Part shown: one piece after another, positions 4,476 to 32,466 of the stretch | Layout: every line of letters begins with the position of its first letter | Position numbering within the stretch: position 1 is the stretch's first letter | From: Chloroflexota bacterium | Lineage (GTDB): Bacteria; Chloroflexota; Anaerolineae; Promineifilales; Promineifilaceae | Direction of reading: 5' to 3' | NCBI GenBank assembly: GCA_018004935.1 | Contig: JAGNBF010000014.1 | Location: 1-32,466 of the forward strand | DNA length: 32,466 bases | The notes under the pieces: generated by a model | What the model saw: the letters and a program-made list of their open reading frames with translations, nothing else | Database searches by the model: none | Told to the model about the DNA's origin: nothing | Position numbers and translations under genes: made by a program

Positions 4476-5168
4476 TTAATCTTGAGGTGGTTCCAGGTTT
4501 TGTTTGAGTAGGGCCAGGAACGTTTCGTTGCCCAACATTTCACCTAGAGCCAGGTAGGGGTTAAGGCTTTCGGTTTGCCATAACCAGTGCGGCCGCAAAC
4601 GAAATCCCTTTAGCACTTCAGATTCCACCCACTCATCCTCATCCATACCAAACAACTGGTATCGCCCCGTCTCATCCAACCGGTAAAAATCTGCCCGTTG
4701 TTTCCCTGCACGTGGATCAATGATCCAATATTCCGTGATACCTGCCTGCTCAAACTCCCGGAATTTATCCCGCCGATCTCGTTGTACGCTCTCAGTGGAA
4801 ATAATTTCAATGACCAAATCTGCGGGGCCATCAAGCCAATCTTCTTTCAGACGATGTAAGTTCGCTTGAAGCACAAAGAAAATATCTGGCTGGCGGATAG
4901 ATTGACCGGAGCGGAGCCGCATTTCCGTTGGGGCCGACCACACTTCGCCCAATTTGAAGAGTTTTATGAATTGTTCAATCAAATGAAAGAGGCGATTGGA
5001 AATGCGTTGATGTTTAATTTTGACGGGCATAAACGGAATAACCTCCCCATCCACCCATTCGGCAAGCGTATCTTCATCCGCCCAGGCTAAAAACTCTTCA
5101 TAGCTCATGCGGTTATTTTTAGGCTGATTGACTTTGGCTTTAGGAAGCAAAACCTTTGAAACTGTCAT
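4476..5168 (-). CDS. Uma2-family (DUF820) putative PD-(D/E)XK endonuclease
   Basis: The 230-aa ORF has the characteristic Uma2 layout: '...EWVDGEV...', 'QPDIFFV', 'PDLVIEIIS', 'KFREFEQAGITEYWIIDP'. GAGG lies 9 nt upstream of the ATG at 5168. Confidence 0.8.
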   Translation of the reverse strand: MTVSKVLLPKAKVNQPKNNRMSYEEFLAWADEDTLAEWVDGEVIPFMPVKIKHQRISNRLFHLIEQFIKLFKLGEVWSAPTEMRLRSGQSIRQPDIFFVLQANLHRLKEDWLDGPADLVIEIISTESVQRDRRDKFREFEQAGITEYWIIDPRAGKQRADFYRLDETGRYQLFGMDEDEWVESEVLKGFRLRPHWLWQTESLNPYLALGEMLGNETFLALLKQNLEPPQD

Positions 5169-5361: not shown

Positions 5362-7500
5362 TTATAAGGCGTGACGATTGCCCATGACACTGACATCGTA
5401 CCCAGGTAACTGAGCCACCGCCTGACGAAATGTGCCATCGTGCAGGAGATCAAGTAGCGGCCGCAACAAATCCCCTTCCCCATGTTCCGCTGGTATCACC
5501 AGGTCGTACCGCTCCTGCGCCAGGGGGACAAAATCCAGTTGCAGGGCACGCGCGGCCGCAACCACCCCCAACCCCATGTCCGCCGTACCGCTGGAAATCG
5601 CGGCCGCGACCGCCAGATGGGTGTACTCTTCCCGCTCATACCCGGTCACCATCTCCGGCACGATGCCCCGTTGGCCTAACTCATAATCCAACAACACCCG
5701 CGTCCCCGCCCCCCTCTGCCGATTTACTAACCGGATGTCCGGGCGGGCAGAGTCTTCCCACCCCTTGATCCCTTTCGGGTTGCCCGGTGGGATGATCCAG
5801 CCTTGCTCCCGCCCCACCAGGGTGATCAGCATCACCTTTTGCCCCGGCAGGTAACGGTGGATGTACGAAACGTTGTATTCACCCGTCGCCGGGTCGAGCA
5901 GGTGGGAGCCAGCCAGATGGGCTTCGCCGCGCCGTAAGGCCACCAGCCCCCCCAGACTACCCACATTAGCGGAGCTGAGTCTGCGGCCGCGTTCGGCCAA
6001 AAATTGGGCCATTAAATCCAGCGTCAAATCGTGACTGCCAATGCACAAAATCGTCCGCTCAATCTCCGGCACGGTGCGATACAGGTGAACCGTCACCTGC
6101 GCCCCCGCCTCTTCTCCTTCGCTAAACCGGGGAATCCGCACGATGCCATCCGCCCGCACCAACGAGGTAATCACCCCCGCCCCCCGGCTGATGGGCGTCG
6201 CCAACACCTTCTCCCCCACCTTACCCACCGCCACCCGCACAAAATCATCATCCCCGGTGTGAGAAACCACCTTTCGTGTCAGGGTCGCCGGGAGTGTGGG
6301 CGGCTCATAGGCCGGTTGCCCCTGCCAACGGGCCAGCAACGGCTCGACGAATATCTCCCCGGTCAGTGCGGCACTGACGGGATAGCCGGGCACGCCAATG
6401 ATGGGGAGCGAGTGGGCGAGTGGGCGAGTGGGCGAGTAGGCGACTGATTCACCGTGTCTCCGCGTCGCCGCGTCCCCCTCTCGCCGCGTCCCCGCGTCCC
6501 CGCGTCTCTCGATCATCCCTAAAATAACTGGATGCCCCGGCCTGACCGCCACCCCATGCACCAGGAGTTGGCCTAGCTCTTGCACGACGTGGGCGGTGTA
6601 ATCTTTGCTCCCGGCGGATGAACCAGCATTGACGAGGATGAGGTCGTGGGATGCGGCCGCGTCTTTCACCGCCGCCACAATCTTCTCCCACTCATCCGGC
6701 ACAATCGGCCAACGGGTGGGAATGCCCCCCCACTGCTCCACCTGCCCGGCCAGGACAAGGGAGTTGAATTCGATGATTTGGCCGGGGGAAAGGGCCGAGT
6801 GGTGAGTGCTGAGTGCTGAGTCAGGAGAGTGAGAGACTGAGAGACTGGAGACTGGAGACTGTTCGCTGTTCACTGTCAACTGTTCACGGCTAACTGCTTC
6901 CACACTGACCAACTCTGACCCGGTGGGGATGATGGCGACCCGCGGCCGCGTATAAACCGTGACCATCGCATGACCAGAACCGGCCAAGGCTCCCAGGTCA
7001 ACCGGGCGCAGTTTGTGGTTGGCGGGCAGAACCAGTTCCGTGGCGACCATATCCTCGCCCAGCGGCCGCACATGGGTCCAGGGGGCCAGGCTGGCCCGAA
7101 TCTCGATGGCCGATGCGCCGATTTTTTGGGTGTGTTCAATCATTACCACCGTATCAGCCCAGATGGGCAGGGGCGCACCGGTATTGACCGCCTGCGCCGG
7201 GCGCACCCCTGGGGCAATATCTTCCCACGCTTCGGCCAGGGTCAACTGGAGGGGATTTGTCTCGGTGGCCTCGTGGGTGTCACGGGCACGCAGGGCGTAG
7301 CCATCCATGGCACTGGCGTGGTAATGGGGGGCGGAAATTCTGGCCCACACCGGCTCGGCGGTTACGCGGCCCAACGCCTGGGTGAGCGGGATGGTTTCTG
7401 TGCCGAGGGGTTGCCAGAGAGAGGCAGATTGCAACGCGGCCGCGAACCGGCGCCACGCTTCGTCAAGGGGTAAATCTTCGAGGTAAATGTTTCGTTTCAT
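5362..7500 (-). CDS. moeA: Molybdopterin molybdenumtransferase (MoeA) fused to a C-terminal PBP-like (molybdate/tungstate-binding-type) domain. It carries two low-complexity insertions.
   Basis: MoeA motifs are 'ISAPHYHASAMDGYA', 'NTGAPLP...ADTVVMIEHT', 'PRVAIIPTGSELV' and 'LILVNAGSSAGSKDYT...VAVRPGHP'. The C-terminal ~300 aa look PBP-like. I chose the start at the 7500 ATG (MKRNIYLEDLPL). The ORF track extends the frame to 7569. Confidence 0.8.
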   Translation of the reverse strand: MKRNIYLEDLPLDEAWRRFAAALQSASLWQPLGTETIPLTQALGRVTAEPVWARISAPHYHASAMDGYALRARDTHEATETNPLQLTLAEAWEDIAPGVRPAQAVNTGAPLPIWADTVVMIEHTQKIGASAIEIRASLAPWTHVRPLGEDMVATELVLPANHKLRPVDLGALAGSGHAMVTVYTRPRVAIIPTGSELVSVEAVSREQLTVNSEQSPVSSLSVSHSPDSALSTHHSALSPGQIIEFNSLVLAGQVEQWGGIPTRWPIVPDEWEKIVAAVKDAAASHDLILVNAGSSAGSKDYTAHVVQELGQLLVHGVAVRPGHPVILGMIERRGDAGTRREGDAATRRHGESVAYSPTRPLAHSLPIIGVPGYPVSAALTGEIFVEPLLARWQGQPAYEPPTLPATLTRKVVSHTGDDDFVRVAVGKVGEKVLATPISRGAGVITSLVRADGIVRIPRFSEGEEAGAQVTVHLYRTVPEIERTILCIGSHDLTLDLMAQFLAERGRRLSSANVGSLGGLVALRRGEAHLAGSHLLDPATGEYNVSYIHRYLPGQKVMLITLVGREQGWIIPPGNPKGIKGWEDSARPDIRLVNRQRGAGTRVLLDYELGQRGIVPEMVTGYEREEYTHLAVAAAISSGTADMGLGVVAAARALQLDFVPLAQERYDLVIPAEHGEGDLLRPLLDLLHDGTFRQAVAQLPGYDVSVMGNRHAL
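6405..6510. repeat. Microsatellite-like repeats inside moeA: (gagtgggc)x3-4 followed by cgcgtcccc-type repeats
   Basis: Direct reading of 'gagtgggcgagtgggcgagtgggcgagtaggc' and 'cgcgtcgccgcgtccccctctcgccgcgtccccgcgtccccgcgtc'. On the minus strand they encode '...ERRGDAGTRREGDAATRRHGESVAYSPTRPLAHSLP...'. Confidence 0.8.
6797..6862. repeat. Microsatellite-like 7-nt repeats inside moeA: (gagtgct)x2, (gagactg)x3-4
   Basis: Direct reading. On the minus strand they encode the low-complexity segment 'SEQSPVSSLSVSHSPDSALSTHHSALSP', inserted between MoeA motifs 'IIPTGSELVSV' and 'GQIIEFNS'. Confidence 0.8.
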
Positions 7501-7758
7501 GGTGTATTGTATGATGTGTATGGCGTGGTACGTATTGGGTGGTGCGTAGGTGAGCCTAATACGCACCACGCAACATTGTACCTCATTCCCCTTGTTTCGG
7601 GGTTCTGGACGGGGCTGATCCCCGCAATTCTCAATTTAACCAACGGCTAAAACCGTTGCCCACCAAAAGCACACCCGAAAAATGGCCCAACCCGTAGAAC
7701 AGCCTTTCAGGCTGTTCGCCCTTTCGAGAAAACAAAAGCGGCAATCGCCCTGTCCATC

Positions 7759-7786
7759 TTGACACGCGGCCGCAACCCCTTATAAT
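7759..7786 (+). promoter_or_regulatory. Near-consensus sigma70 promoter: TTGACA, 16-nt spacer, TATAAT
   Basis: cTTGACAcgcggccgcaaccccTTATAATtcc. It is oriented toward the thrS leader. Confidence 0.55.
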
Positions 7787-8066
7787 TCCTCCTACATAGA
7801 CAAAACGTTGACTGGGACATGTTGGGTCTGCCCCCCGTGTTAGAGAGTGATGGGCCATAGGCTGAAAGCCCTCACCACCAAGACAGAACCAATACCCCCC
7901 AGGAGTGATTCTCAGAACGTGAACAGTCAACAATAAATAGTTGATATTCCACCAATAAGAGAATCCGGGTTACTCCGTTATCAGTTGCAATGAGAGTAAA
8001 CAACACAGCTACACAAACCCCAGTGTTTCAACTCACTGTTCACTGCCAACGGCTCACTGTTTACTA

Positions 8067-8123
8067 AATTTGGGTGGAACCGCGAGACGCCATCGCCCCA
8101 ATACCGGGGTGGTGGCGTTTTTT
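8067..8123 (+). promoter_or_regulatory. T-box riboswitch-like element (T-box motif plus terminator hairpin and U-tract) in the thrS leader
   Basis: aatttGGGTGGAACCGCGag matches the T-box consensus AGGGUGGNACCGCG. The variable N is A, as in Thr-specific T-boxes that pair with a UCCA acceptor end. It is followed by gacgccatcgcccc...ggggtggtggcg and then TTTTTT. The Stem I / specifier region was not resolved. Confidence 0.45.
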
Positions 8124-8427
8124 ATTTCCTATTCGACTCTGGCGAATTTGTACACAACCTCTGGACGTAGCACAGCCTTTCCAGGCGGTGTGTTCTCTGG
8201 TAAAACAAAAAACGCCAATGACGAGTTTCCTAGAAAAAAAGGGAACTCCAGGAACTGAGAAAAACTCATAGGATTGGAGATTAAATAACTTGAACATTTG
8301 CTGTGGCCGGTCTCCTGACCGTGCCACTTCCAGCGAACAAGTTATTTAGTTCTCCTTCCATAGGAACTCACCCCAGTTCCCATGAGTTTCCAGAGTTCCT
8401 ATGAGTTCCCACGTTCAGGAGTTTTCC

Positions 8428-14639: not shown

Positions 14640-15115
14640 TCTACGCGGATTTCCCCCACCCCTAACCCCGCCCCCAGGGGCGGGGAACTTTTAGTGGGCG
14701 TTTTTCGCGGGCATTCGCCCGCGAAAAACGCCCACATTGTTTTTTCCCCTTCCTGCGGGGAATGGTTAGGGGGATGGATTATGGGGCGTGCGGATTTTCT
14801 CTGCCTCTAATCCCGATCCCAGGGGCGGGGAACTTTTAGTGGCCGTTTTTCGCGGGCATTCGCCCGCGAAAAACGCCCACATTGTGTTTTTCCCTTCCTG
14901 CGGGGAATGGTTAGGGGGATGGGTTATGGGGCGTGCAGATTTTCTCTGCCTCTAATCCCGATCCCAGGGGCGGGGAACTTTTAGTGGGCGTTTTTTCCCC
15001 TTCCTGCGGGGAATGGTTAGGGGGATGGGTTATGGGGCGTGCGGATTTTCTCTGCCTCTAATCCCGATCCCAGGGGCGGGGAACTTTTAGTGGGCGTTTT
15101 TCCCTTCCTGCCGGG
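14640..15115. repeat. Array of 4 tandem family-A units (~146, 144, 114 bp, then a truncated unit). Units 1-2 carry a 17-bp-stem hairpin. Units 3-4 have it precisely deleted.
   Basis: Each unit begins ccaggggcggggaactttt. The hairpin is gggcgtttttcgcgggc-att-gcccgcgaaaaacgccc at 14696-14733 and 14841-14878. Units 3-4 read ...gggcgttttttcccc..., lacking the hairpin. Confidence 0.85.
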
Positions 15116-18483: not shown

Positions 18484-21093
18484 ATGCAGTTTTTTGCTCG
18501 TTGGGGACGGTTCGCGGCCGCGATCCTTTTTGTTGCCTTTGGTGTCTGGGTTATTTCTATCCTGGCCACCCCTACCCGCACGACAACATCTGTTCAAGAC
18601 AGTGTCGCCGCTTTGGCTCCAGGCCGTTCTGGCGATGGTACTGGTGCTACCGATGAATTAGCCGCTCAAGACATTCAATTAGTTTATGGTGATCCGGTTC
18701 TACCGGCCAAGGTCAACCTGGCCGACGTGCCCAGCCGCGTTGCTGAGGTAGACACCCTATATCAACGTTATCTGAATGGCGACATCCGCGAAGTCAACGA
18801 AGGGCCAGTAGACGAAGCACTCTTCTTTGATCTGTTAGCCGAATCCGCCAAACAGGGGGTTGATCCTACTGTACAGAATTATGATGATAGCCTGGCCCCG
18901 TTGGGCATTTTAGGTGGGGGAGCCAGTTTTAAATCTATTGATTACACCCAATCCCAACAAGGTGTTCCGCCGGATCCAGATATTATGGTTGGGCGGGATC
19001 ATGTTGTGGTGGGAGTCAATACCAGCTTTCAGGTTTTTGATAAAAGCGGCAACAGCCTGTATGGCCCGGTACTGTATGCTGATTTTTGGGGCGCGAATTG
19101 TGGTACAGGCAGTAATGTGGTCATGTTTGACCCCTATTCTGTGTATGATGAAGAAAACAGCCGCTACGTCTTGGGTATTACCGCTTATGATCCTAATGTG
19201 AATGGGGGTGACAACGGTTGGGCCTGTATGGCCGTTTCACAAACGGATAGTGCCACTGGTAGCTGGTATCTCTACTCTTTTGATGGTAATCCTGGCACAG
19301 GAACCGATTATTTCTTTGACTACCCCCATATCGGGGTGGGGCAGGATGCGTTGTATATGGGGGCCAATATGTTCGGGGCGGCCTTTACCCGTAACCATGT
19401 CCTGGCCTTTCAAAAAGATGCTATGTATGCTGGCACTTCTGCCAGTTATGTGAAATTAAATGTTGCCTCCACTTACTTCACCTTACAACCGGCCAAACTG
19501 AAAGGGTTTGCCAGTGGTGGCTGGCCGACGAGTACCACGGAAGCGCATTATTTTGTGGATGCTAATTATGGCAATAACCAGACCGCGCTTCATGTATGGC
19601 GGTTCAGTAACCCTTGGGGCGCGGCCGCGATGACGTTGGCTGGTACCTTAACTGTGAACAGTTACAGCCTGCCGGTGAGCCAGCCGCAACTGGGTGGCAG
19701 TAATATTCAAGGCAATGACAACCGTCTGCTGGATGTGGAATATTGGGGCGGGTATCTGTGGGCCACGCATGCCGTAGGTTGTAATCCTGGCAGTGGTACC
19801 GTGAACTGTATTCGCTGGTATCAGATTGATGTTCGCGGGGCGACACCGACGCTGGTCCAACAAGGAACATTTAGCAGTGCCAGTAATTATCGTAGTTTCC
19901 CCGACCTGGCGGTGAACCGTTGTGGCGATATGTTGGTAGGTTATACCCGCACCAGCACCACAATGTATCCTGGTGTGTATGTGGCTGGGCGTGAAGCCGC
20001 CGATGCCGCCGGTACGCTGAAGAGTGAGACATTGGTAAAAGCCGGTGAGGATTTCTATACGGCGTATGATAGTGTGCCCCGCCGTTGGGGTGATTATACG
20101 GGAATGGCCCTGGACCCGGATGGTGTGACGTTCTGGTATGTGGGCGAGTATTCGCGGCCGCAGACTACCGCCCGTTGGTCTACCTGGGTTGGTTCCTTCA
20201 CCTGGTCTGGTTGTACTGTCGGTGGCCCCACCCCCACCCCCGTCGGGCCTACACCTACCAATACACCCATTGTCCCCACAGCTACTCCCACCAATACCCC
20301 CGTTCCCCCAACCGCTACACCCACCCCGACCGGTGGTAGCCAGATTTACGCTGGTTCCACTACCAGTGGTGCGGCTGGCGGCGTCGCCTTTGATAATGAC
20401 GACATCCTCATTTACAACACCAGTTCAGCCACCTGGAGCCTCTACTTTGATGGTTCAGATGTGGGCCTGGGCAGTGCCGATGTGGATGCATTTGAATTAA
20501 TGAGCGATGGCACTGTACTGATCAGCCTGGCGGCTTCCTTCTCCGTAACCGGTTTGGGTACAGTGGCCGATGCCGACATCGTGCGCTTTACGCCCACTTC
20601 CACGGGCAGTACCACCGCCGGAACTTTCTCCTGGTACTTTGATGGCTCAGATGTGGGGTTGACAACGACCAACGAAGACATTGACGCGGTGGAAATTCTG
20701 AGTGATGGCCGTATACTCGTTAGCACATTAGGCAACGTCAGTGTGACCGGCGCCTCTGGGGATGACAAAGACTTACTCGCCTTCACCCCCACGGCATTGG
20801 GAGCAACCACCAGCGGTACCTGGGCCTTATACTTTGATGCCTCAGATGTGGGTCTCACAGCGGCAAATGAGGATGTCAATGGTGTCTGGGTTGATAGTAA
20901 CGGAAACATTTACCTGACGACCATTGGTGCTTTTACCGTAACTGGGGCCAGTGGAGATGGCGCGGATATTTTCCGTTGTGTGCCAGGTTCTCTAGGTAGC
21001 ACCACCACTTGTACCTTTAGCCTCTACTGGGATGGTTCGGTGAATGGGTTTGCAGGTGAAGTCCTGGATTCGTTCGCCCTCGTACAACCGTAG
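18484..21093 (+). CDS. Large secreted or membrane-anchored protein. It has an N-terminal signal anchor, a ~480-aa beta-rich domain, a Pro/Thr linker and 3.5 C-terminal ~66-aa tandem repeats.
   Basis: The strong RBS GGAGGAGG lies 7 nt upstream of the ATG at 18484. The signal anchor is 'FAAAILFVAFGVWVISILA'. The linker is 'GGPTPTPVGPTPTNTPIVPTATPTNTPVPPTATPTPTGG'. The repeats carry 'GT(F/W)SLYFDGSDVGL...EDVDAVE..SDG.IL'. The track ORF begins at 18442. Confidence 0.7.
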   Translation: MQFFARWGRFAAAILFVAFGVWVISILATPTRTTTSVQDSVAALAPGRSGDGTGATDELAAQDIQLVYGDPVLPAKVNLADVPSRVAEVDTLYQRYLNGDIREVNEGPVDEALFFDLLAESAKQGVDPTVQNYDDSLAPLGILGGGASFKSIDYTQSQQGVPPDPDIMVGRDHVVVGVNTSFQVFDKSGNSLYGPVLYADFWGANCGTGSNVVMFDPYSVYDEENSRYVLGITAYDPNVNGGDNGWACMAVSQTDSATGSWYLYSFDGNPGTGTDYFFDYPHIGVGQDALYMGANMFGAAFTRNHVLAFQKDAMYAGTSASYVKLNVASTYFTLQPAKLKGFASGGWPTSTTEAHYFVDANYGNNQTALHVWRFSNPWGAAAMTLAGTLTVNSYSLPVSQPQLGGSNIQGNDNRLLDVEYWGGYLWATHAVGCNPGSGTVNCIRWYQIDVRGATPTLVQQGTFSSASNYRSFPDLAVNRCGDMLVGYTRTSTTMYPGVYVAGREAADAAGTLKSETLVKAGEDFYTAYDSVPRRWGDYTGMALDPDGVTFWYVGEYSRPQTTARWSTWVGSFTWSGCTVGGPTPTPVGPTPTNTPIVPTATPTNTPVPPTATPTPTGGSQIYAGSTTSGAAGGVAFDNDDILIYNTSSATWSLYFDGSDVGLGSADVDAFELMSDGTVLISLAASFSVTGLGTVADADIVRFTPTSTGSTTAGTFSWYFDGSDVGLTTTNEDIDAVEILSDGRILVSTLGNVSVTGASGDDKDLLAFTPTALGATTSGTWALYFDASDVGLTAANEDVNGVWVDSNGNIYLTTIGAFTVTGASGDGADIFRCVPGSLGSTTTCTFSLYWDGSVNGFAGEVLDSFALVQP

Positions 21094-32039: not shown

Positions 32040-32466
32040 CAGCTAAAATGCTGACAAACTATTCTTACAGGAGTTCCCCATGGATGGTATGCACACCAAG
32101 ATGGATGAAAATAACGCCACCATTTTTCATTCCTATCCGTGTTTTTTCCTATCCGTGTTTCCACCATCAGTGGCAATTTTCTCAGGAGTTCCCCATGTGC
32201 CTTTGGCACACCAAGAGGGATGAAAATCTGTAGGACGATTTGGTAAATCGTCCGGGCGATTTGCCAAATCGCCCTACATTTCGTAGGAGTTCCCCATGGG
32301 CCTATGGCACACCAAGATGGATGAAAATAACGCCACCATTTTTCATTCCTATCCGTGTTTTTTCCTATCCGTGTTTCCACCATCAGTGGCAATTTTCTCA
32401 GGAGTTCCCCATGTGCCTTTGGCACACCAAGAGGGATGAAAATCTGTAGGACGATTTGGTAAATCG
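32040..32466. repeat. Higher-order tandem array. It consists of 43-bp units (ggagttccccatgNgcctNtggcacaccaagaNggatgaaaat) alternating with two different inserts of 72 and 58 bp. Each insert occurs twice, so the array is a ~216-bp super-unit duplicated. It runs off the window end.
   Basis: Direct reading. Units lie at 32069, 32184, 32285 and 32400. Insert 1 is identical at 32112-32183 and 32328-32399. Insert 2 (32227-32284 and 32443-end) is a near-perfect ~50-bp palindrome made of two 9-bp-stem hairpins, ggacgattt-ggt-aaatcgtcc and gggcgattt-gcc-aaatcgccc. Confidence 0.85.

Follow-up and report, generated by a model that had tools for sequence, protein, structure and literature searches.

Rickettsia palindromic elements (RPEs), as summarised in PMC3184786, are selfish DNA that sits inside protein-coding genes and keeps their frame (Ogata et al. 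2000). A second body of precedent concerns tandem arrays: long-unit simple sequence repeats (SSRs, units of 5-11 nt) are known in prokaryotes (Mrazek et al. 2007, by way of the summary in PMC4679880), and in a table excerpt on prokaryotic 'satellites' Chloroflexus aurantiacus tops the bacteria (PMC6749651). Heptamers described in this context comprise GGGGA(T/C)T in Nostoc and GGGAATC in Xanthomonas, which are mainly intergenic and under-represented in coding regions (PMC4692102), and TAACTGA in Beggiatoaceae and cyanobacteria (PMC4679880). Here we analyse a stretch of 32,466 nt from a Chloroflexota bacterium (contig JAGNBF010000014.1, hereafter the window), in which a gene for a MoeA-PBP fusion protein carries two in-frame insertions, A and B, built from 7-nt and 8-nt units respectively, and we consider these inserts likely to be dispersed short-repeat arrays that settled in permissive loops. 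Cyanobacterial STRR heptamers, which Mazel and co-workers are said to have described in 1990, reportedly include CCCCAGT, TTGGTCA and CAACAGT, and the phase-variable contingency loci of Haemophilus and Neisseria carry non-triplet repeats within open reading frames (ORFs).

By analogy, the RPE would be the closest functional counterpart of the inserts and the bacterial long-unit SSR the closest in architecture. With RPEs, so far as the summary describes them, the arrays share the presence of dispersed repeat DNA both between genes and within conserved housekeeping genes, always in frame, where orthologues have none, fold-compatible and perhaps partly palindromic. RPEs are however discrete elements of 105-146 bp with a family consensus in that summary, whereas the arrays here are mosaics of variable unit, copy number and order, an arrangement of two roughly inverted arms is seen in insert B alone, and the hosts belong to different phyla; we know of no sequence relation of the inserts to RPEs. 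The heptamer families resemble them in being tandem, abundant genome-wide and at times arranged as inverted pairs (PMC4692102), and in having filamentous hosts too. What sets the present arrays apart from these families is that they lie in frame in many genes, that they include an octamer class with periodic hairpins of 5 bp plus 3 nt, and that they occur in the phylum Chloroflexota. The units CTCCAGT, CCCCAGT, GAACAGT, GGAGATT, GGGGATT and TTACTGA of the present repertoire are 0-1 base away from STRR, Nostoc, Xanthomonas or TAACTGA units, the STRR sequences being those reportedly described; CTCCAGT and GAACAGT of the window are each one base off such reported STRR units, CCCCAGT itself is found in a related locus (L083), and the host is not a cyanobacterium. 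As the summaries of long-unit SSRs and satellites have it, those too are head-to-tail arrays of short units with heptamers dominant, put down to polymerase slippage; in-gene units are mostly multiples of three in these accounts, whereas here they are non-triplet and total length together with unit variants rescues the frame. With contingency loci the inserts have in common an in-ORF repeat unit that is not a multiple of three, and they differ in lacking strain-level copy-number variation and frame switching and in residing in a housekeeping enzyme instead of a surface determinant.

Two in-frame insertions in a MoeA-PBP fusion gene

The host gene (Table 1; comparison loci are given L numbers and orthologous proteins P numbers) is an ORF of 712 codons plus stop, which agrees with the 713-codon ORF of a first-pass annotation made from the DNA letters; both insert peptides quoted there are present, and a GTG farther upstream would extend the product to 735 aa. 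Its product belongs to the MoeA-PBP fusion family both by whole-protein score (751.7 bits against NCBIfam NF011068/PRK14498, with an equivalog cut-off of 534, residues 1-708 covering profile positions 1-642 of 647) and by the order of its Pfam domains, MoeA_N (residues 11-176), MoCF_biosynth (221-390), MoeA_C (405-473) and PBP_like (502-686). Judged by its sequence and by homology to MoeA/gephyrin structures, the gene is probably functional and its product a molybdopterin molybdotransferase-type enzyme whose C-terminal domain resembles a periplasmic binding protein. The MoCF_biosynth match is stretched to 170 residues for a 144-position model because of the inserts. Outside the inserts, the ratio of nonsynonymous to synonymous divergence (dN/dS) is 0.05-0.09 in comparison with three relatives at dS 0.39-1.07, and such low values indicate strong purifying selection on the host gene.

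That the two segments are true insertions in conserved MoeA loops, as the first-pass annotation had proposed, is borne out by an alignment of 25 orthologues (A1) and by comparison with the solved structure of Pyrococcus horikoshii MoeA (1uz5). The alignment to 1uz5 falls into three pieces, broken exactly at sites A and B, where that protein has 4 residues and 1 residue respectively. Among the orthologues the segments do not behave as conserved family-specific regions: at site A the segment is confined to the four closest relatives (82-89% identity), in which its length and sequence differ, one further orthologue (P0077) has a shorter, unrelated insert, and all remaining ones have a loop of 9-14 residues. 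Measured on the DNA, the site-A loop is 126 nt long here vs 27-42 nt in the more distant loci in which both anchor motifs were found. The site-B loop is hypervariable over the whole Promineifilaceae/Ardenticatenaceae clade, ranging from 33 to 159 nt and being in frame in all ~70 loci. As with RPEs, then, the insertions are in frame in a conserved protein whose orthologues have no such segment.

Both inserts are composed of short non-triplet tandem arrays, as first described, with two corrections. Insert A is a mosaic of direct heptamer arrays with a period-7 zone at 6797-6887; the end given earlier at 6862 falls ~25 nt short of a heptamer zone that reaches ~6890. Insert B has a two-arm layout in which, in the sense direction, a G-rich octamer array is followed by a short spacer and a C-rich octamer array. 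The 5' arm is (GACGCGGG)n, translating to ERRGDAGTRREGDAATRRHGE, and the 3' arm is (CGCCCACT)n, translating to AYSPTRPLAHSL; the unit reported earlier as the 9-mer (cgcgtcccc)n actually has period 8. Among the insert-encoded peptides are GDAGTRREGDAATR and SPTRPLAHSLP. Five arrays of the gene reach at least three head-to-tail copies of a 5-11-nt unit (3.6-6.9 copies), and arrays of period 7 or 8 with a score of at least 40 number four in the gene vs none in 200 dinucleotide-preserving shuffles.

The periods, 7 and 8, are not multiples of three, yet the ORF is intact, a point rightly stressed in the first-pass annotation. In each insert the annotated frame alone is stop-free, the other five frames having 1-3 stops. 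Variant units break up the GAACAGT array of insert A at points at which uniform repetition would give CAG TGA, and in the (GGTGACAA)n arms of four comparison loci (L001, L004, L007 and L010) the unit that would supply an in-frame TGA reads TGG or GGA; GGAGATT, the commonest in-gene hairpin unit, is stop-free in every frame on both strands. These frame and stop constraints suggest that selection acts on the inserts at the level of translation. An AlphaFold2 (AF2) model built on 25 sequences renders both inserts as low-confidence coil, with predicted local distance difference test (pLDDT) values below 50 for residues 196-241 (the insert A region) and for residues 334-362 (insert B), the latter lying between strands E323-331 and E364-370. 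A third MoeA insertion hot spot, at ~residues 91-125 in the N-terminal domains, is not occupied in the window; it is filled in four comparison loci (Table 1), in several of them with inverted octamer arrays.

Stability within the species and spread through the lineage

Three contigs of different sample origin encode the exact protein, with identical repeats. Two of them match the window at only 99.3-99.4% over 7.7-14.6 kb, with 0 and 1 mismatches in MoeA, and in orthologue P0124, encoded on a 4.58-Mb contig, the inserts are identical and four substitutions lie elsewhere. The arrays are thus stable at the species level, and the inserts are real and tolerated and no product of frameshift errors, in line with the first-pass annotation, four to five independent assemblies agreeing and the core of the gene having the low dN/dS given above. 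The strain-specific polymorphism that had also been suggested is not supported, the repeats being unchanged in contigs ~0.6% divergent elsewhere; the variation is between species. Phase variation is ruled out, given the lack of strain copy-number change and the in-frame state of all orthologous loops examined.

Between species the inserts turn over. L081, L082 and L084, at dS 0.39, have inserts assembled as different mosaics from a single unit repertoire, which in the window and L081-L084 consists of (GGAACTCNNN)n, (CGCCCACT)n, (CAGCACT)n, (CAGTCTC)n and (NAGCAGT)n. The window, L081 and L084 do not have the same number of copies in arm 1 of insert B, and site B of L082 and L083 is occupied by quite different arrays. 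Single units also change place: the window has (CGCCCACT)n at site B whereas L084 has it at both, the CAGTCTC-type unit recurs in L081, L082 and L083 at sites A and B, and the CAGCACT unit recurs at site A of L081, L082 and L084 as well as in YfhO-like and SMC genes of the clade. In L084 (the contig with P0005) the first ~70 codons of MoeA, at 7202-7435, are in another frame and are called as a 77-aa ORF; this break, an assembly error or a real frameshift, is away from the repeat sites.

Contrary to the earlier view that such inserts are unusual in a housekeeping enzyme, similar in-frame arrays occupy many other genes and spacers of the lineage (Table 1). Promineifilaceae, Ardenticatenaceae and other Anaerolineae genomes supplied 1.28 Mb of orthologous loci, in which no non-triplet period is commoner than 7 (201 rows) and 8 (104 rows). 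The peptides SPTRPLAHS, STQHSALS and TVNSEQ of the window's MoeA recur in several of the unrelated proteins, SMC, YfhO-like and regulator genes within the clade also carry (CGCCCACT)n, and a metagenome scan returned (CGCCCACT)3 in at least 120 contigs of very different composition.

The arrays are ordered with respect to one another. Inverted copies make up 30 of the 40 adjacent array pairs in the orthologous loci and direct copies none of them, and in the inverted pairs inspected the G- or purine-rich arm lies 5' of the C-rich arm, a polarity noted for L001-L080 and L088-L207. The matches listed for (CGCCCACT)n comprise 114 arrays, of which 20 are accompanied by a G-rich period-8 partner no more than 100 nt upstream and 0 by one downstream. 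Many orthologous site-B elements form strong hairpins (z -5 to -9.5), either of the (GGAGATT)n/(AATCTCC)n type, which is fully complementary, or of the (GGTGACAA)n/(TCACCCYT)n type, in which each octamer unit pairs as 5 bp plus a 3-nt internal loop. In insert B the arms are 70-77% complementary and the fold likewise consists of periodic 5-bp helices and 3-nt internal loops, at a z of only -0.2 to -1.5, no better than shuffles. Read as a hairpin or a MITE (miniature inverted-repeat transposable element), insert B is therefore a weak candidate at most, and insert A is ruled out as one, having no hairpin and RNA folding z values of +2.5 to +2.8, that is, less structure than shuffles.

A block of ~120 nt is common to the SMC hinge of L153 and MoeA site A of L084, and its four array types follow in the same order: GTAGTGAGCAGTGA.CAGT, then (GGGAACTCNN)3-4, then (CGCCCACT)4, then CGC.CCCTCAGCACTC. 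A few mismatches and two gaps are all that separates the copies; they come from the same metagenome sample, and both contigs bear the signature of a palindrome, GCGGCCGC, described below. Four arrays arising twice in the same order by independent slippage are unlikely, and copy-paste is the most economical reading.

An intergenic relative of the repertoire lies upstream of thrS in the window (Table 1), where a tandem array is called at 8372-8416. Its GGAACTC family supplies the first site-A array in L081, L082 and L084 and occurs as inverted pairs just upstream of their MoeA genes. The ~830 nt between MoeA and thrS (7570-8400) hold no convincing gene; they run from CACTGTT heptamer-like units through a terminator-like hairpin with a T-run (~8070-8170) to GGAACTC/GAGTTCC arrays. 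The start listed for thrS, 8401, falls within the repeat array, and the later Met (MSETNIPYEQ) is therefore the probable true start. An Rfam search of the whole window matched no family, including no T-box upstream of thrS, which speaks against a known RNA family in or near the MoeA gene.

Table 1. Positions of the host gene, its inserts and arrays in the window, and of comparable arrays in other loci (array calls by Tandem Repeats Finder, TRF; + and sense refer to the strand on which a unit is given)
Feature	Position	Strand	Period (nt)	Copies	Remarks
MoeA-PBP fusion host gene	5362..7500	minus			PRK14498 type, 'molybdopterin biosynthesis protein'; 712 aa, intact
Insert A	6796..6906	minus			~residues 199-235, ~37 aa; flanked by 'PTGSEL' and 'PGQIIEFN'
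Insert A array 1 (TRF)	6858-6887		7	4.3	+ ACTGTTC; sense GAACAGT-like
Insert A array 2 (TRF)	6824-6861		7	5.1	+ GGAGACT; sense CAGTCTC / CAGTCTCT
Insert A array 3 (TRF)	6797-6821		7	3.6	+ GAGTGCT; sense CAGCACT
Insert B	6409..6507	minus			~residues 332-364, ~33 aa; flanked by 'PVILGMI' and 'PIIGVPGYP'
Insert B sense 5' arm (TRF)	6452-6506		8 or 16	6.9	+ CCGCGTCC
Insert B sense 3' arm (TRF)	6408-6443		8	4.5	+ GCGAGTGG
Intergenic relative of repertoire	8290..8420		~10		GGGAACTC/GGAACTG units, then (GAGTTCC)-type units, to which the period of ~10 applies; upstream of thrS
Third MoeA hot spot, filled	L046 10415-10486
Third MoeA hot spot, filled	L059 10273-10369
Third MoeA hot spot, filled	L060 2104-2260
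Third MoeA hot spot, filled	L068 10274-10385
In-frame arrays, MutL	L022
In-frame arrays, two PMT_2-type glycosyltransferases	L068 (one of the two)				this one with six inserts
In-frame arrays, YfhO-like membrane protein	L137				six arrays
In-frame arrays, SMC hinge	L153
In-frame arrays, Fe-S subunit	L166
In-frame arrays, SARP/AAA/TPR regulator	L171

Competing accounts of the origin of the inserts

We consider it likely that the inserts are dispersed short-repeat arrays generated by slippage and copy-paste, filtered for frame and for the absence of stops, and retained in permissive loops. Two surface loops of cofactor-binding domain III would have been colonised, site A by arrays of 7-nt units and site B by arrays of 8-nt units, the units coming from a repertoire that appears dispersed through the genomes of filamentous Chloroflexota (Ca. 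Promineifilaceae / Ardenticatenaceae), in spacers and in tolerant protein loops alike. Arrays would grow and shrink through replication slippage, neighbouring arrays would often be inverted copies with the G-rich arm leading, giving long periodic hairpins, and composite array blocks may now and then pass as copies from one locus to another, with templated repair, gene conversion or transposition as candidate mechanisms. Survivors within genes would be those with a total length that is a multiple of three, a stop-free sense frame and a loop able to tolerate a hydrophilic, disordered peptide. Given such a filter on spreading arrays, the inserts would be passenger DNA, translated but selfish or neutral, as opposed to designed linkers. 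For the window's own inserts, a contribution of copy-paste stands at slightly under an even chance.

Several observations weigh against this account or parts of it. Translation of the inserts is inferred from frame and stop constraints, and the AF2 model, with a mean pLDDT of 63.8, is modest in quality. The hairpin of insert B, as noted, does not exceed shuffles. No strain-level copy-number variation was seen, so slippage, if any, is slow. In terms of RPE-type dispersal, units and one composite module are common to genes of the clade, and a second copy of the window's exact modules was not found within ~37 kb of its own genome. Where two-arm (GACGGGGC)n/(CGCCCACT)n elements turn up in unrelated high-GC metagenome contigs, their spacers show no relation to one another, which favours a recurrent generating process over one mobile family spread by descent and rules out such a family with a conserved spacer. 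Finally, the occupation of the site-B loop throughout a whole clade makes some function possible.

The competitor that survives best, although we hold it unlikely, is a purely local origin, in which a chance seed in each loop was expanded by slipped-strand mispairing and no exchange between loci took place; this was the view of the first-pass annotation. The arrays are indeed head-to-tail and internally homogeneous, arm 1 of insert B differs in copy number alone among the window, L081 and L084, the unrelated spacers of two-arm elements in unrelated genomes fit, and some bacterial genomes are known to be enriched in heptamers and other 5-11-nt repeats (PMC4679880, PMC4692102). Local seeds do not, however, account for the finding of one unit in two loops of the same gene and in several other genes of the clade, for four closely similar arrays in the same order over ~120 nt in SMC and MoeA, or for the inverted orientation and upstream-only G-rich partners of adjacent arrays documented above. 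Local expansion alone is insufficient, since the same unit is present at both sites, a module is present in two genes and insert B has two inverted arms.

A role at the nucleic-acid level, with the protein merely tolerant, would have a hairpin or G-quadruplex modulate translation, transcription, recombination or replication. It would fit the strong hairpins of many orthologous site-B elements and the four GGG tracts separated by 5-nt loops on the + strand at 6403-6443, and similar heptamers of Xanthomonas and Nostoc form quadruplexes in vitro (PMC4692102). Against it, neither unit sequence nor structure is conserved at a given site, insert A is less structured than shuffles and the insert B hairpin is not significant, and no Rfam family is present in the window; we rate this role as very improbable.

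Adaptive inserts, selected at the protein level as lineage-specific flexible linkers or as interaction loops through which MoeA dimerisation, cofactor transfer or the link with the PBP-like domain is adjusted, seem a remote prospect. Most clade members do have extra residues at site B, the inserts are stable within the species and they flank cofactor-binding domain III. Their peptide sequence is nevertheless unconserved even at 82-89% overall identity, their presence and length range from 0 to ~50 aa, their composition is the plain translation of repeat units, the three peptides named above turn up in unrelated proteins, and disorder is predicted at the inserts. Misassembled repeats or a decaying gene, to which two fragments in the 90% cluster (P0121, 368 aa, and P0122, 182 aa) and the out-of-frame first ~70 codons of the L084 copy might point, are ruled out for practical purposes by the same sequence in several independent assemblies, short-read and chromosome-scale, by the intact 712-aa ORF above the equivalog cut-off with its dN/dS of 0.05-0.09, and by the position of the frame breaks of both fragments outside the repeats.

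Beyond slippage and occasional copying into permissive loops, a bolder version of the preferred account would be that composite blocks combining 7-nt and 8-nt arrays, in general a G-rich arm and then its C-rich inverse, constitute undescribed self-propagating mini-elements, copied by a dedicated activity and colonising tolerant loops of housekeeping proteins (MoeA, SMC, MutL) in filamentous Promineifilaceae/Ardenticatenaceae; the overlap of units with cyanobacterial and Beggiatoaceae heptamers would then hint at machinery, possibly horizontally transferred, that filamentous bacteria have in common. We regard this version as doubtful.

Other repeats of the window and wider meaning

The palindrome GCGGCCGC occurs 46 times in the 32.5 kb of the window vs 0.84 expected, and shuffles never gave more than 3; sites inside MoeA include 5457, 5552, 5600, 5983, 6653, 6942, 7062 and 7436. 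Its density is 0.9-2.5 per kb only in the close clade (L081-L087, L137, L153, L166, L171 and L202), with a median of 0.05 per kb in the other orthologous loci. It looks like a lineage-specific highly iterated palindrome, analogous to the cyanobacterial palindrome HIP1, which is GCGATCGC. A literature search returned nothing linking GCGGCCGC to highly iterated palindromes. Directly downstream of MoeA lies a Uma2-family (PF05685) nuclease-like gene (4476-5168, minus strand), a neighbourhood kept in L081 and L085-L087; a tie between Uma2-type nucleases and the repeat arrays or the GCGGCCGC motif would be pure speculation.

Longer repeats are present as well. At 1-296 and 14662-15115, intergenic units of ~150 nt are arranged in tandem (periods 156 and 145/106, copies 95% identical), with G/C-rich end motifs and a long central hairpin, e.g. 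GGGCAAAATGGGGTG...CACCCCATTTTGCCC and GGGCGTTTTTCGCGGGC...GCCCGCGAAAAACGCCC; the two families have just the 21-nt motif TCCCCGCCCCTGGGGGCGGGG in common, and the units may be MITE- or terminator-like. A 216-nt tandem repeat at 32069-32466 (1.8 copies, 97% identical) reaches the end of the window and holds an internal 16-nt duplication, TTCCTATCCGTGTTTT. At 20226-20325 a CCCCAC hexamer run is followed by 2.3 copies of a 33-nt tandem repeat, CTACACCCACCAATACACCCATTCCCCCAACAG, probably a Pro/Thr-rich linker in a coding region.

As a single-gene finding, the inserts of this MoeA-PBP fusion are ordinary within their lineage, and it is the lineage-wide phenomenon that is moderately interesting; a literature search gave no account of in-frame non-triplet arrays colonising housekeeping genes in Chloroflexota. 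For annotation, low-complexity stretches in the conserved enzymes of this lineage would be translated repeat DNA, which inflates protein lengths, splits domain hits and depresses the confidence of structure models. For genome evolution, the locus indicates that non-triplet arrays can last in essential genes provided that the frame is restored by total length and by unit variants, so that such inserts mark the permissive loops of a protein. Composite modules common to different genes, together with the strict polarity by which the G-rich arm comes first, suggest a process beyond simple slippage, and complete genomes of the clade could bear on the origin of bacterial heptamer repeats.

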